From NCBI GenBank assembly GCA_003599795.1, contig QZJQ01000037.1:1-63181 (forward strand): a DNA stretch of 63,181 bases, given 5' to 3'. The notes below the pieces were generated by a model that saw only the letters and a list, made by a program, of their open reading frames with translations, made no database searches and was not told where the DNA came from. Positions 4,545 to 51,537 of this stretch are shown here, one piece after another. The position numbers and the translations under genes are program-made. Position 1 is the first letter of the stretch. Every line of letters begins with the position of its first letter. This DNA comes from Nitrospiraceae bacterium. GTDB taxonomy: Bacteria; Nitrospirota; Thermodesulfovibrionia; Thermodesulfovibrionales; UBA1546.

Positions 4545-4768
4545 AACCCTCAGAATTAAGGGCGTTGACAGTTGAAGAATTAAAACAAAAGGAGCAGGAT
4601 GTCAGAAAAGAGCTTTTTAACCTGAAGTTCAGGCTTGCCACAGGTGAAGTAGAAAATCCTAAGCGTATAAATGCGCTTAGAAAAGATATAGCCAAGATAC
4701 TGACAATAACAACTGAGAAGTTATCAGCCTCGGCTGATTCGCCTGAGGCGAAAAAAGTTAAAAGTTAA
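4541..4768 (+). CDS. rpmC: 50S ribosomal protein L29 with repeat-encoded C-terminal tail
   Basis: L29 core [18 protein letters not shown]... The last ~14 aa ([15 protein letters not shown]) are encoded by two GC hairpins plus AAAGTTA words. Confidence 0.9.
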
Positions 4769-4772
4769 AAAA
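4722..4772. repeat. Two GC mini-hairpins plus AAAGTTA words forming the rpmC 3' end
   Basis: ATCAGCC-tc-GGCTGAT; TCGCC-TGA-GGCGA; AAAAAGTTAAAAGTTAAAAAAG. Confidence 0.88.
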
Positions 4773-21748: not shown

Positions 21749-22627
21749 ATGAAAAACATAGGCGGGCAGGCGGTAATAGAGGGAGTGATGATGAAGTCCC
21801 CGAAAGGCTGGACAGTGGCTGTAAGAGATACAAAGGGGGATATTCATGTAAAAAGGGAAACACTCTCTGAGTTCCCTAAACTGCTGAAGGTTCCGATGCT
21901 CAGGGGAGTTGCGGCATTGTTCCATGCTCTTTTCCTCGGAGTGAAGGCAATAGAATTCTCTGCAAGCAAGGCATATGATGAAGACGAAAAACCCATGAGC
22001 CCTTTCACTATCAGCCTGACAATGGGCTTTGCCTTTATAATAGGGATTGCGCTTTTTGTGCTGCTTCCGCTGTATGCAACGAAGCTTATCGGCATTGCAA
22101 TTACCCCTGTTTCTGAGAATTCATTTTTATTTAACATTGTTGACGGGATAATAAGAGTTCTTATATTCATGGGTTATGTTGTCGCAATCGGGCTCTGGAA
22201 GGAGATGCGAAGGATATTTGAATATCACGGCGCAGAGCACAAGGTAATACACGCATACGAGGACGGCAAAGAGCTTACTGTGGAAAATGTGAGGCGTTTC
22301 AGCCCTCATCACCCAAGGTGCGGCACGAGTTTTCTTTTGATAGTCATGATAACAAGCATCTTTGTATTTTCTTTTATTCCGCAGTCATGGCTTTTTATTT
22401 ATAAGTTTCTATCAAGGCTTATTCTTATTCCGCTGGTGGCAGGGCTTTCGTATGAGGTTTTAAAGCTTTCTGCGAAGATGAAAGATAATCCGGTTATAAA
22501 CCTTATGATTATGCCGGGGCTTCTTTTGCAGAGGCTCACGGCGCATGACCCTGATGACAGGCAGATAGAAGTTGCCATCACAGCATTAAAAGAGGTTCTT
22601 AAGTTAGAGGCTGAAAATGCTGCTTGA
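21749..22627 (+). CDS. DUF1385 (YqhQ-like) membrane protein
   Basis: [43 protein letters not shown] 21749 follows AAGGTGG. The upstream 41 codons of the ORF cover the inverted repeat. Confidence 0.85.
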
Positions 22628-23681
22628 AAAACTCCAGACAATAGAAGACAGGTACGAAAAACTGACAGCCCAGATGGCAGACCCGAAGGTCCTGTCTGTG
22701 CCGCAGGAATATCAGAAGTATACAAAGGAGCAGTCTGAACTCCAGTCCCTTGTTGAGAAGATCCGCGAGTATAAAAAACTTTTGACTGATATGGAAGGAG
22801 CTGAAGAAATTCTTAAGGGCGGAGATAACGAGTTCAGGGAGCTTGCGCAGGCAGAGCTTAATGAACTGAAAGAGAAAAAGCCCAAGATAGAAGAAGAACT
22901 TAAAGTAATGCTTCTGCCTAAAGACCCGAGGGATGAAAAAAGCGTAATACTTGAGATACGGGCAGGCACAGGCGGAGAAGAGGCGTCTCTTTTCGCGGCA
23001 AACCTTTTCAGGATGTATTCAAGATACGCTGAGATGAGGAGATGGAAGGTAGAGGTAATTGATTCCAGCCCCACAGGCCTCGGCGGGCTAAAAGAGATAA
23101 TTGCAAATATCGCTGGCAAGGGCGCATACAGCAGGCTGAAATATGAAAGCGGGGTTCACAGAGTGCAGAGGGTGCCTGTGACTGAAGGCTCCGGAAGGAT
23201 TCACACCTCAGCAGCAACAGTTGCGGTTTTGCCTGAGGCTGAAGATGTTGATATAAAGGTGGAAGAAAAAGACCTCAGAATTGATACATTCTGTTCATCA
23301 GGCGCAGGCGGACAGAGCGTAAATACGACCTATTCTGCTGTGAGGATTACCCATGTGCCTACAGGGCTTGTTGTGCAGTGTCAGGATGAGAGGTCTCAGT
23401 TAAAAAACAGGGAAAAGGCAATGAAGGTTTTGCGTTCAAGGCTTCTTGAACTTGAGATAGAGAAGAAAGATAAAGAACGCGCTGCGGACAGAAAGACTCA
23501 GGTCGGCACAGGCGACCGGAGCGAGAGGATACGGACGTACAATTTTCCGCAGAACAGGATGACGGACCACAGGATTGGGCTGACCCTTCACAGGCTGGAG
23601 AGCGTGCTTGAAGGCAATATTGACGAGATAATAGATAACCTTATTGCCCACTATCAGGCAGAGAAGCTGAAGGAGTTATAA
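22617..23681 (+). CDS. prfA: Peptide chain release factor 1
   Basis: PVT tripeptide and SGAGGQSVN (GGQ) motif. Confidence 0.96.
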
Positions 23682-23828: not shown

Positions 23829-24083
23829 TTATTGAATTGTTTTTTCGCTAAATGGACAAGCGACTGTTACATACCGCGAATCAAATGTATCAGATGGCAG
23901 CCCCTTAACAGCATAGCCCCATTTCCCGGCATACCAACCTTGAGCAGTATATTTTGTGAAATGGACTTCGGTAATGCGCCAAATAGTGCCATCAGAAATA
24001 TTTTGAATGCATTCCCCCTCTTTAAATTTGGCGCATCCGAAAAGAGATATGAGAACAATTAAACTCAATAGCGGTATTCGCAT
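23829..24083 (-). CDS. Small lipoprotein, unknown function
   Basis: MRIPLLSLIVLISLFGC lipobox. Confidence 0.55.
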   Translation of the reverse strand: MRIPLLSLIVLISLFGCAKFKEGECIQNISDGTIWRITEVHFTKYTAQGWYAGKWGYAVKGLPSDTFDSRYVTVACPFSEKTIQ

Positions 24084-24220
24084 TTTATTGTCTCCTATTT
24101 ATTTGATGTGTAACAATTACTATGCGAACTGTCGTATTTTCCCCTAAATGCCTAAACTATAGCATATCAGGAGGATTTTAAAAATAGTAAAATCGTACAA
24201 AAACATATTAAAATCACTAA

Positions 24221-25141
24221 ATGACTGCACTCGATAAGATGAAAGAAATAACGGAATTCCTGAAAGGGCTTGGCATTGAGGATGTGCATAAGGAATCGGA
24301 GATTGTCGTGACCCATTGTCTCGGCATAGATAAGACTGTCCTTTACAGGGATAATCCCGTTCTTTCTGAAAAAAATGTAAAAGACATTGACGCTGTTCTT
24401 CAAAGGCGCGCGAAGAGGGAGCCGCTGCAATATATTATTGGCAATGTGGAATTTTGCGGCTTGAAGATAAAGGTTGGGCGGGGCGTTCTTATTCCAAGGC
24501 CTGAGACAGAATTGCTGGCAGAAGAAGTGATAAAGGCAGTTGAGAGTTATAAGTTAAAAGTTAAAAGTGAAAAAGAAATACACAACTCCAAACTCCAAAC
24601 TCCAAACTCCAAACTGCGAGTCCTTGACCTTTGCACAGGAAGCGGGTGCCTTGCGCTTGCAATAGCAAAGAACTTTCCTGATGCCAAGGTATACGGAACT
24701 GACATATCAAAAGATGCAATAAGGTATGCAAATGAGAACGCAGAGCTTAACGCAATAACGAATGTGACATTTCTTAAAGGCTCGCTGTTTGAGCCCTTAA
24801 AACAAATCATCTTTTCCGGCACTCTGTCCTTTAAGTTCGATGTGATTGTCTCAAACCCTCCGTATATCAGAAGCTGCGACATGCCGAATCTTCAGCCTGA
24901 GATAAATAAGTGGGAGCCAAGGAATGCTCTTGACGGCGGCGAGGACGGGCTCAGCTATTACAGGACGATACTTTCAGAGGCGCGCGCATACCTGATGCTC
25001 AGCGGAGTTATCTTTCTTGAAATCGGAGAAGGACAGGCAGAGGAAGTCTCGGAAATCGCCGTGCGGAATTGTTTCCGGAATATCTCTGTTATTAAGGACT
25101 ATTCAGGCATAGAGAGAATAATAGCGGCAAGAGCATTATAG
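24221..25141 (+). CDS. prmC: Release factor glutamine methyltransferase with in-frame repeat insertion
   Basis: IPRPETE, VLDLCTGSGCLALAIA and NPPY motifs. About 20 extra aa sit between the PRPETE helix and the SAM motif. Confidence 0.92.
   Translation: MTALDKMKEITEFLKGLGIEDVHKESEIVVTHCLGIDKTVLYRDNPVLSEKNVKDIDAVLQRRAKREPLQYIIGNVEFCGLKIKVGRGVLIPRPETELLAEEVIKAVESYKLKVKSEKEIHNSKLQTPNSKLRVLDLCTGSGCLALAIAKNFPDAKVYGTDISKDAIRYANENAELNAITNVTFLKGSLFEPLKQIIFSGTLSFKFDVIVSNPPYIRSCDMPNLQPEINKWEPRNALDGGEDGLSYYRTILSEARAYLMLSGVIFLEIGEGQAEEVSEIAVRNCFRNISVIKDYSGIERIIAARAL
24548..24615. repeat. In-frame tandem word array inside prmC: AAGTTAAAAGTTAAAAGTGAAAAAG plus (AACTCCA)x4.6
   Basis: Four perfect AACTCCA copies at 24584-24611. 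The 16-mer AAGTTAAAAGTTAAAA is identical to 4755-4770. Confidence 0.9.
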
Positions 25142-25180: not shown

Positions 25181-25210
25181 TTGACTTTGGATTTGGATTT
25201 TAATTAATAT
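25181..25210 (+). promoter_or_regulatory. Candidate sigma70-type promoter for atpB-atpE
   Basis: TTGACT-N18-TAATAT ~30 nt upstream of atpB. Confidence 0.35.
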
Positions 25211-48797: not shown

Positions 48798-51413
48798 TTA
48801 TATTACTATATTAACAAGTTTGCCTTTAACAATAAAGACTTTTTTCAGCGCTTTCCCCTTTAAAATTTCCTGTATCTTAGGTTCGTCAAGAGCTTTCTCC
48901 CTCACATCATCGTCGGGGAGCCCGGCAGGTATCATAATCTTTGCCTTTACTTTGCCGTTAATCTGAATAACGAGCTCTATTTCTTCCTCTTGTGCGATGC
49001 TCTCATCCCATAGAGGCCATTTCTGTTCAAGTATGCTTTTTTTGTTGCCTATGGATTCCCACAGTTCTTCCGATATATGCGGAGAAAATGGAGAAAGCAA
49101 AAGCACAAGCGTCTCAATGCCGAATCTGAATGCTTTCCAGTCGCTGTCTGATTTTGGTTCAAATGAGCTTAGATCATTCACAAGCTCCATAAGCGCTGCA
49201 ATCGCTGTATTGAAGTGGTATTCGCGCTCTATGTCGTTTGTAACCCGTTTTATGGTCTGATGAGTCTTTCGTAAAAGGCTGACAGCCGACAGCTGACAGT
49301 TTGAAAGTTCTTCAATTTTGAATTTTGCATTTTGAATTTGAACTTTGTTTTTATAGACTATTCCCCATATCCTGTTCAAAAACCTGTAAGCTCCCTCAAC
49401 TCCCTGGTCAGACCATTCAAGGTCCCTTTCAGGCGGCGCTGCAAAGAGCGAGAAGAGCCTTGATGTGTCTGAGCCGTATCTGTTTATAAGATGGTCAGGG
49501 TCAATGACATTCTTCTTTGATTTTGACATCTTCTCAACCCGTCCTATGTCAACAGCCTTTCCGCATTTTATGCACTTCTCATCCTTAACATCTTCAGGCA
49601 AAAGCCAGCCGTGCTCAGGACATTTCAATGTTTCCTTGCATACCATTCCCTGCGTGAGAAGGTTTGTGAAAGGCTCCGGAGAGTTAATGATGCCAAGGTC
49701 TTTTATAACACGGGTAAAGAACCTTGAATAGAGGAGATGCAGCACTGCGTGTTCAACGCCGCCGACATACTGGTCAACAGGCATCCAGTAACTTATTGGG
49801 GATTGGGGATTGGGGGTTAGGGATTGGAAATCAATCTTACCATTGTCAACGCAATATGCAACAAAATACCATGATGAATCAACAAATGTGTCCATAGTAT
49901 CCGTCTCACGTCTTGCCTTGCCTTTGCATTTTGGACAAATTGTATTTACAAATTTTTCTGACTCTGCAAGCGGTGACCCGCCTGTGCCTGTGAATTTCAC
50001 ATCCTCGGGAAGGATTACCGGCAGTTCTTGCTCAAGGACCGGAACAACACCGCATTGCTCACAATAAATTACCGGTATAGGCGTTCCCCAGTATCTCTGC
50101 CTTGATATTCCCCAGTCACGGAGCTTGTAATTTACTACCCTTTTGCCAAGGCCTTTTTTCTCTATGTGCTTTGCTATCTCTATTCGTGCAACGTCACTTT
50201 TTAGCCTGCTGTATGAACTTGAGTCAATGAGAACCCCATCTTCTTCGAACGCAGCTTCAAGCTCGTGAGGGTTCGAGGGAAGAATTGTATTTTCACTTGA
50301 CCCCTTGACTCCTTGTCTCCTCTGCGACTCGCCTGAGGCGAGACCCCTTGACTCCTGTACTATTACTTCCCTTATCGGCAGCTTGTACTTCTTTGCAAAC
50401 TCAAAATCCCGCTGGTCATGCGCAGGAACTGACATTATAGCTCCTGTGCCGTATTCCATCAGAACAAAGTTTGCTATATAAATTGGAATCTTCTCATCAT
50501 TAGCCGGATTGACTGCATAGTGCCCTGTAAAGAGCCCAATTTTTTCATCTTCCTTGCCGTAGTGCTCTTTGATTTTTTTAATTGCTTCCTTATCAGCGAC
50601 GAGTTTTTCTGCCAGTGGATGTGTTGGCGCAAGGCACACAAAGGTCGCGCCAAAAAGCGTATCTGCCCTTGTAGTAAATATGCGGATTTTTTCGTCTCTT
50701 CCGGCAACTTTGAAATCAGCCTCAAGCCCCTCGCTTTTCCCAATCCAGTTTTTTTGCATTAAGACTACTTTTTCAGGCCAGCCCTTAAGCTCATCACACG
50801 CCTTCAGAAGGTCTTCCGCATATTGCGTGATTCTGAAGAACCACTGCTCCAACTCTTTCTTGATTACGGCTGTATCGCATCTCCAGCATCCATTGTCAAT
50901 AACCTGCTCGTTTGCAAGAACAGTCATGCATGAAGGGCACCAGTTCACAAATGACGATTTTCTGTATGCAATCCCCTTCTCATACATCTTCAGGAAGAAC
51001 CACTGATTCCACTTGTAGTAATCAGGGCTGCATGTTGTAACCTCTCTGTCCCAGTCATAGCTGAGTCCGAGCTGGTTGAGCTGTTTTTTCATGTATGCGA
51101 TATTTTCGTAGGTCCATTTTGCAGGGTGGATACCCTCTTTTATCGCGGCGTTCTCAGCAGGCATTCCGAAGGCATCCCATCCCATCGGATGAATAACGTT
51201 AAAACCGCACATTCTTTTATATCTTGCGATTACGTCGCCGATTGCATAATTCCTGACATGGCCCATGTGGATTTTCCCTGAAGGGTAGGGGAACATTTCA
51301 AGGCAGTAGAATTTCTTTTTTGAAGAGTCTGCTTCAGTTTTGAAGATATTTCTCTCAGCCCAGTACTTCTGCCACTTCTGTTCAACTTTTTGCGGATTGT
51401 ATCGTTCTTCCAA
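48798..51413 (-). CDS. leuS: Leucyl-tRNA synthetase
   Basis: HMGHVRNY and KMSKSKKN class I motifs. A TTG start at 51413 after GGAG gives [18 protein letters not shown]. The 32 upstream ORF codons are unlikely to be coding. Confidence 0.95.
49279..49345. repeat. In-frame word arrays inside leuS (CTGACAG x3; TTTTGAA/TTTTGCA words)
   Basis: CTGACAGCCGACAGCTGACAG then CAATTTTGAATTTTGCATTTTGAATTTGAACTTT. Encodes [27 protein letters not shown]. Confidence 0.88.
49795..49827. repeat. In-frame heptamer array inside leuS: (ATTGGGG)x3 GTTAGGG ATTGG
   Basis: Three perfect heptamers at 49795-49815. Encodes [11 protein letters not shown]. Confidence 0.9.
50267..50357. mobile_element. Candidate miniature element in-frame inside leuS, with the same octamers as the four-helix-bundle gene arms plus a TCGCC hairpin
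   Basis: GGGTTCGAGGG (50269-50279), 16 nt, CTTGACCCCTTGACTCCTTG (50296-50315), CTCGCC-TGA-GGCGAG (50328-50342), ACCCCTTGACTCCTG. Confidence 0.6.
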
Positions 51414-51537
51414 AATGTTTTCTCCTCTATGAAATGTAGCACTTATTATATCCGTGCAGAGCGGGGATTGACAAGGGCAGAGGAAAGTGAAGATAAACGG
51501 GCTGAACACCGAAGGTGCTGCTCATCTTTTATTCGTT

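Follow-up and report, generated by a model that had tools for sequence, protein, structure and literature searches.

A heptamer-ladder hairpin translated in frame within prmC of a groundwater Nitrospirota genome, a likely copy of a dispersed repeat family

Does a run of heptanucleotide repeats inside the gene for the release-factor N5-glutamine methyltransferase PrmC turn that gene into a phase-variable switch, or is it a repeat that the protein tolerates? The question is raised by a stretch of 63,181 nucleotides (the window; contig QZJQ01000037.1 of assembly GCA_003599795.1, Nitrospiraceae bacterium), which is contig 1 of a metagenome-assembled genome of Thermodesulfovibrionales from groundwater (1.40 Mb, 74.7% complete). 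Here prmC occupies positions 24221 to 25141 on the plus strand as an open reading frame (ORF) of 306 aa. A sequence-only reading of this DNA had reported that repeats are inserted in frame after the IPRPETE helix and before the S-adenosylmethionine (SAM)-binding motif, and had proposed a contingency locus. ORF translation, Tandem Repeats Finder (TRF) and alignment to HemK all confirmed the insertion itself. As to its nature, we consider it likely that a dispersed heptamer-ladder hairpin has here left an in-frame copy purged of stops, lodged in a permissive loop of PrmC and most likely without any switch function. In what follows G000 is the window's own genome and L001 its prmC; the other G and L numbers are genomes and sequences of relatives, which are labelled Thermodesulfovibrionales or Nitrospirae and come from groundwater and lakes.

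The whole element, as delimited by an RNA fold, extends from 24536 to 24617 (+) and covers in-frame residues ~106-133. Its left arm (24538-24572, +) consists of five AGT(T/G)nnn units, namely AGTTGAG, AGTTATA, AGTTAAA, AGTTAAA and AGTGAAA, and its right arm (24584-24618, +) of (AACTCCA)x4 followed by AACTGCG. TRF gave period 7 on both sides, with 4.1 copies and 90% matches at 24545-24573, and with 4.6 copies of the unit AACTCCA and 100% matches at 24584-24615, in agreement with the four perfect units that had been claimed. Both arrays lie within the prmC ORF, the tract being translated as ...VESYKLKVKSEKEIHNSKLQTPNSKLRVLDLCTGSG..., with KSEKEIHNSKLQTPNSKLR as its predicted peptide. The tract is not made of pure word repeats, as had been stated, because an 11-nt non-repeat spacer, AAGAAATACAC (24573-24583, +), parts the two arrays. 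This spacer is the loop of one imperfect hairpin of which the arrays are the arms: AGTT pairs with AACT at every rung, and the stem is closed by GCAGTT/AACTGC (24536-24541 with 24612-24617). The element folds at -18 kcal/mol (z -3.38), and 0/200 dinucleotide shuffles fold equally well. Within each unit of the window's copy, pairing is found at only 4/7 positions. The Rfam scan gave no above-threshold family at the hairpin. Neither the pairing of the arms nor membership of a dispersed family, described below, was part of the sequence-only reading.

The host gene is prmC/hemK. Its product passes the equivalog cut-off of TIGR03534 (272.3 bits, cut-off 199.1, residues 26-301 covered), and it has the two-domain HemK fold: its AlphaFold (AF2) model (predicted local distance difference test, pLDDT, 93.1; predicted template modelling score, pTM, 0.89) matches in Foldseek 2b3t_A, the E. 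coli PrmC from the RF1 (release factor 1) complex, with TM scores of 0.84/0.93. The translation contains the SNPPY and CTGSG motifs (NPPY and GxGxG in general form), and residues N212, P214, Y215, G140 and G142 are invariant. The linker from RPETE to DLCTGSG counts 38 aa in the window's PrmC versus 20-23 aa in 10/14 orthologues of the order's other families; it is longer than usual, as had been noted, the length given there having been ~32 residues. When aligned by HMMER to Thermotoga maritima HemK, query residue 114 falls on chain residue 124 and query residue 134 on chain residue 125, leaving 19 extra residues (115-133). In the AF2 model the helix that follows RPETE runs from 94 to 120, pLDDT is below 50 at 122-128, and beta1 corresponds to 133-137. 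The model places the insert at the end of the post-IPRPETE helix and in the loop before beta1, which would be a structurally permissive spot. Programmed ribosomal frameshifting was rejected by inspection: no slippery heptamer of the form X XXY YYZ is present in the tract, and PrmC is encoded by the zero frame only.

Looking at the words of the left arm elsewhere, we found that the 14-mer AACTCCAAACTCCA occurs 3 times in the window, compared with 0.02 expected from shuffles. The 16-mer AAGTTAAAAGTTAAAA is present exactly at 24551-24566 and again at 4755-4770 (+), where an identical copy had been announced, and it has 8 matches with <=1 mismatch versus 0 expected. The near-identical copies placed around 105 and 60878 turned out to be related arrays only (AAAGTTA, AAGTTAG) with >1 mismatch, and the AAGTTAA words pointed out elsewhere belong to what is the commonest heptamer family of G000. 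A 96-nt prmC query matched 27 places in G000; it also matched 19/19 other genomes of the same family (f1) and 4/21 genomes of the order's other families. Many of these matches span both arms, with 72-83% identity. A two-arm pattern (>=3 AGT(T/G)nnn, a spacer of <=45 nt, >=3 (A/C)ACTnnn) was found at 20 loci of G000 versus 0 in five shuffles, and 16/20 of these loci are intergenic or at ORF edges. The intergenic two-arm copies have AACTCTT or AACTTTT as right arm, which pairs well with AAGTTAA; the right arm in prmC is a stop-free variant of this usual arm. The prmC element is a member of a hairpin repeat family dispersed throughout the clade. In the genus relative G009, three two-armed AGTT/AACT copies were observed in a single open frame of 1427 codons (C40:4503-6302).

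This family is part of a general excess of heptamers. Period 7 dominates the tandem repeats of G000, with 236 TRF arrays, 130 of which score >=40, compared with 31 (3 scoring >=40) for period 6, 89 (43) for period 8 and 107 (4) for period 9; periods 14 and 21 contribute 87 (83) and 19 (19) arrays. More than 40 distinct canonical units are represented, and the commonest, AAAAGTT (= AAGTTAA, 34 arrays), is the unit of the left arm. When the arrays of period 7, 14 or 21 (n=274) were placed on a crude ORF map, 139 were inside and 135 outside. Since this map covers 90.6% of G000, intergenic DNA is strongly preferred and the genic copies are a tolerated minority. At some gene junctions of G000 (C3:34386-34415, C51:8598-8636 and C20:13557-13588) heptamer arrays read into C-terminal tails or N-terminal leaders, for instance ...QDTRYRIQDTR behind an NnrD-like protein and, where murE ends, ...DTRYRMQDKKHES.

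How such a repeat can lie within an open frame is indicated by its units. Repeated in tandem, AAGTTAA, AACTCTT and AACTTTT each bring stops at intervals of 7 codons, whichever the frame. The left arm in prmC reads TAT (24548-24550, Y110) and GAA (24569-24571, E117) where a pure AAGTTAA array would give TAA, and the right arm is built of the stop-free AACTCCA, at a cost in pairing. These two codons and this unit show that the prmC copy has been moulded so as to remain open. The same CA recurs in each of the four right-arm units, and the related type in L003 is AAAACTC throughout; this uniformity points to past homogenisation by slippage or conversion. The element, of the form (AGTTnnn)n, spacer, (AACTnnn)n, is abundant and mainly intergenic in this family of Thermodesulfovibrionales, and we propose that genic copies would persist only at places where the protein can accommodate added residues, and only if they are stop-free and preserve the frame. 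In prmC the element would be translated as a helix extension followed by a disordered loop. Slippage or conversion over evolutionary time may have spread the stop-free unit through the right arm, while selection for an intact prmC would hold the length of the tract fixed.

We then compared the same site in 38 orthologous prmC sequences, taken from 30 genomes and 8 metagenome or extra contigs. All 38 read through the linker with the frame intact. At least 13 insert types are present, in linkers of 20 to 38 aa, and the units differ by lineage: AGTT/AACT types, CAGCAAT, GTAACAC, GTTCACN, GTTTCAA, GCAGAGA and a C7/G7 hairpin. A lag of 7 gave the best repeat score in 15/16 orthologues from genomes of the family, 10 of which pass a strict threshold. 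The long inserts of the relatives fold as ladder hairpins (z -2.9 to -6.3), with the exceptions of L004 and L019 (z near 0); single-array linkers of 20-22 aa in the same genus form no hairpin (minimum free energy 0 to -0.8). The C7/G7 type matched 56, 37, 47 and 19 places in the four searched genomes in which it or a related insert is present, and no place in G000. As C7/G7 and AGTT/AACT are each dispersed in their carriers, the prmC site of each lineage holds a family that is common in its own genome. The type of the window is also found in L002 and L110, species-level relatives with ~80% protein identity, at identical length and with point substitutions only. More generally, each shared type has one length (L001/L002/L110; L003/L007/L116/L037; L010/L011/L117; L006/L009/L111/L014) in this comparison between species-level relatives. 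The types are scattered over a PrmC tree computed with the linker left out, C7/G7 appearing in three separately supported clades; this tree has many short inner branches and is weak evidence alone.

The prmC gene is not the only host of such inserts. In leuS (48801-51509, -, in the window; L193-L197 in the relatives), three sites carry different heptamer or hairpin families in G000 and five genus relatives, among them a C7/G7 insert read as PPLTKGGIKGG in G002 and AACTCCG/AACTCCA arrays in G008 and G006. Here too insert length is equal wherever a type is common to sequences. An origin in situ from a native, FTV-coding GTTCAC motif was ruled out for the two-armed types, which match dispersed families; it is possible for the 20-aa single-array linkers of L006, L009, L014 and L111. 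The linker of L021 contains TTCAC x3. In L116 and L037 the right arm is (AAGACTC)n, the heptamer of the neuO repeat discussed below, and encodes KLKTQDSRLK, the same RLKTQDS-type heptad; this sharing is probably a coincidence of a stop-free unit.

Is prmC a contingency locus? Slipped-strand gain or loss of AACTCCA would toggle the gene and thereby vary release-factor methylation within the population. The 7-nt unit does not divide by 3, four units are perfect, and gain or loss of 1 or 2 units cuts the product short at 130-152 aa, before the methyltransferase domain; with 3 units the frame is left intact. The frameshift that had been claimed for a single unit therefore stands. The uniform stop-free right arm, like the AAAACTC of L003, testifies to past gain, loss or conversion of units, and there is a precedent for a coding heptamer switch in neuO, a surface-modification gene of the CUS-3 prophage in E. 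coli K1, whose heptanucleotide variable-number tandem repeat (VNTR) has 3-53 units, most commonly 20, is out of frame in 65.6% of complete genomes and varies in unit number within single cultures (PMC13001214). Against this, the prmC tract has 4.6 units, its length is equal in the three species-level relatives that carry the type, as is that of every other shared type, and no OFF allele was seen among the 38 orthologous sequences. The sequence-only reading had itself held that the same tract conserved across related genomes would speak against a switch, and this is what L002 and L110 present, length included. Nor does any of 255 heptamer arrays of G000 split a gene: out of 12 candidates, one was an antisense artefact at prmC and the other 11, judged from translated ends, were ordinary junctions (murE/murF, rplF/rplR, plsC/ispH and NuoE/NuoF-like among them). 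The occurrence of the same kind of array in the housekeeping gene leuS fits a mutational or mobile process better than a gene-specific switch, and membership of a dispersed hairpin family already explains the sequence. When metagenome contigs were searched for the fixed flanks separated by a gap of 14-44 nt, 0 matches came up, and the 90% protein cluster of the window's PrmC has a single member. A phase switch at prmC is thus not supported by the comparison of these sequences with those of relatives, and we regard it as very improbable.

The reading of the tract as a tolerated copy has in turn to face several points that weigh against it. Within a type, the DNA of the insert is better conserved than the rest of prmC, third codon positions included: its identity is 96.4% versus 80.2% for the rest of the gene between L001 and L002 (P 1.5e-5), 96.4% versus 76.9% between L003 and L116 (P 7.6e-7), 97.2% versus 71.1% between L010 and L011 (P 1e-8) and 97.2% versus 67.7% between L010 and L117 (P 3.8e-10). 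One would expect a purely neutral passenger to diverge no more slowly than the gene; therefore constraint, homogenisation or lateral exchange must be acting. As for location, the insert would lie on the side of the Rossmann sheet facing away from the SAM site, as deduced from the topology of the fold, in which the N-terminal end of beta1 is on the face opposite the cofactor, and as for spread, no agent was identified, the transposase test having covered Y1 (PF01797) alone. When different types are compared, the identity of the insert falls far below that of the gene (41.7% versus 79.1% for L001/L005). The conservation within types could be caused by homogenisation of the arrays, by conversion with dispersed copies as donors, by interspecies exchange, or by selection acting on the nucleic acid.

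The last of these causes would make the hairpin a functional element of the prmC mRNA or DNA, selected as a ribosome pausing signal, a processing or stability site or a protein-binding site. Conservation at all codon positions (P 1.5e-5 to 1e-8, or lower still for L010/L117) agrees with this, as does the recurrence of the hairpin build with the unrelated arms AGTT/AACT, CAGC/GCTG and C7/G7. In L001 and L002 the conserved block starts and stops exactly at the base of the stem, an argument weakened by the fact that the block is flanked by the most conserved motifs of PrmC. However, the hairpin-less linkers of 20-22 aa in the same genus indicate that prmC can do without the structure, the stem of L110 is broken by uncompensated changes (AGTT to AGCT and AGTG) and its fold is weaker, the window's copy leaves three positions of each unit unpaired, and Rfam gave no match. 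Moreover, bulge and loop are as conserved as the stem, which fits homogenisation or recent shared ancestry better. On balance selection on the hairpin seems unlikely to us. Even less probable, and barely to be expected, is an adaptive protein feature, in which the 19 extra residues, as helix extension and loop, would give PrmC a new interaction or regulation. The prolongation of the helix to residue 120 in the AF2 model could be taken in this sense, types 1 and 2 have in common the peptide pattern V.SY.L.V...I..SKL.T.NS.L, and the heptads encoded by the neuO repeat raise the activity of that enzyme (PMC13001214); but the peptides are unrelated between types (21% identity for L001/L005), the linker varies from 20 to 38 aa within one genus, pLDDT drops below 50 at 122-128, and the conservation is at the DNA level, third positions included, rather than specifically at that of the protein. 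A further reading, which we hold to be doubtful though somewhat better placed than selection on the hairpin, is that the in-gene hairpins are cassettes that are actively copy-corrected or exchanged, through a mechanism so far undescribed. It is suggested by the fact that one site in prmC and three in leuS hold the abundant family of the lineage, by the mosaic of types on the PrmC tree and by inserts evolving more slowly than synonymous sites; candidate mechanisms are gene conversion with dispersed copies as masters, homing into arrays already present and interspecies recombination through the conserved flanking motifs. The tolerated, stop-purged copy remains the reading that we favour. The data show its anatomy, its hairpin, its dispersal, its avoidance of stops, its constant length and its place in the fold; the neutrality or tolerance of the insert, as well as the manner in which the element spreads and is homogenised, are proposed on this basis.

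Concerning the spread of the element, we looked at Y1 transposases of the RAYT type (REP-associated tyrosine transposases, REP being repetitive extragenic palindromic sequences). Neither G000 nor G001 (100% complete), two genomes rich in the element, yielded a PF01797 protein, and PF01797 is present in 6/8 other families whose searched genomes are all without an element match. There being no correlation with the elements, this transposase was rejected as the spreading agent.

Among known systems, the Rickettsia palindromic elements (RPEs) seem the nearest in behaviour. They form several palindromic families, many members of which lie in frame in housekeeping genes at positions compatible with the fold (review PMC10969869). 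Both systems thus consist of dispersed hairpin repeats translated in frame at permissive sites. However, an RPE is ~150 bp long, has a conserved peptide in each family and contains no heptamer arrays, whereas the present elements have ~80 nt, arms built as a 7-nt ladder and unit sequences that vary between species, in a host from a free-living Nitrospirota lineage. By analogy, the prmC element may be regarded as an RPE analogue, set apart from the RPEs by size and build, rather than as a member. In build, the nearest systems are tandem heptamers. The short tandemly repeated repetitive (STRR) sequences of cyanobacteria are genome-wide tandem heptamers of several sequences, mostly intergenic. 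The tandem heptamers of Beggiatoaceae (TAACTGA) are described in PMC4679880 as mostly intergenic and of sporadic phylogenetic distribution, period 7 being the commonest class of long simple sequence repeats in many genomes (SSRs; citing Mrazek 2007). A genome-wide excess of tandem heptamers with several units is common to these systems and to G000. The TAACTGA arrays differ in having forward stops, in being direct repeats and in being almost wholly intergenic, whereas the arrays studied here are paired and inverted and about half of them lie within ORFs. With neuO, the prmC tract has in common a coding 7-nt unit, a frame that depends on copy number and heptad peptides, and AAGACTC itself in L116 and L037; it differs by its 4.6 units, its fixed length across species, the lack of any OFF allele seen and its location in a housekeeping enzyme. 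Lastly, REP sequences and MITEs, the miniature inverted-repeat transposable elements, likewise are short dispersed hairpin repeats, mainly intergenic and present in many copies per genome; unlike them, the present elements have no terminal inverted repeats or target-site duplications that we could identify and are not tracked by a Y1 transposase. In the collection of papers searched, none linked heptanucleotide repeats with Nitrospirae.

What is new here is the hyper-conservation of the insert within types, together with the TAT and GAA codons and the stop-free right arm of the prmC copy. Taken by itself, prmC is an unremarkable, intact gene that tolerates its insert and gives no sign of a phase switch of translation termination. 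The wider pattern is that of a free-living Nitrospirota family in which lineage-specific heptamer-ladder hairpins occupy permissive loops of essential genes. From these inserts one can read which sites of conserved enzymes tolerate insertion, and beside the RPEs of Rickettsia they form a second, independent system in which to see how selfish or structural repeats become protein sequence. They also raise the mechanistic question of what measures 7 nt and what homogenises the copies, and they call for caution when such genomes are annotated or when phase variation is predicted in them from SSRs.

The surroundings of prmC call for a few remarks. RF1, the product of prfA, is the substrate of PrmC, and a gene read as prfA from its ORF translation only (GGQ motif; 22617-23681, +) lies 540 nt upstream of prmC. 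The 540-nt gap contains an antisense ORF of 84 aa (23829-24083, -) with a lipoprotein-like start (MRIPLLSLIVLISLFGC...). In the spacer directly upstream of prmC, on the opposite strand, Rfam returned a sub-threshold SAM-III match (24081-24186, -; 20 bits versus 45, E 0.21); its position upstream of the gene for a SAM-dependent enzyme is probably due to chance. In L002 (28-168), from the closest relative G008, the region upstream of prmC encodes instead the C-terminus of a tyrosine-recombinase-like protein (...LLGHKNVETTMIYTHV...) and there is no prfA-side spacer; gene order around prmC therefore differs between the two genomes. On the other side, the prmC-atpB spacer of the window carries (TTTGGA)x2.5 at 25186-25200, whose TTTGGAG, when reverse-complemented, equals the right-arm unit in register (CTCCAAA); the corresponding spacers of L002 and L110 are unrelated.

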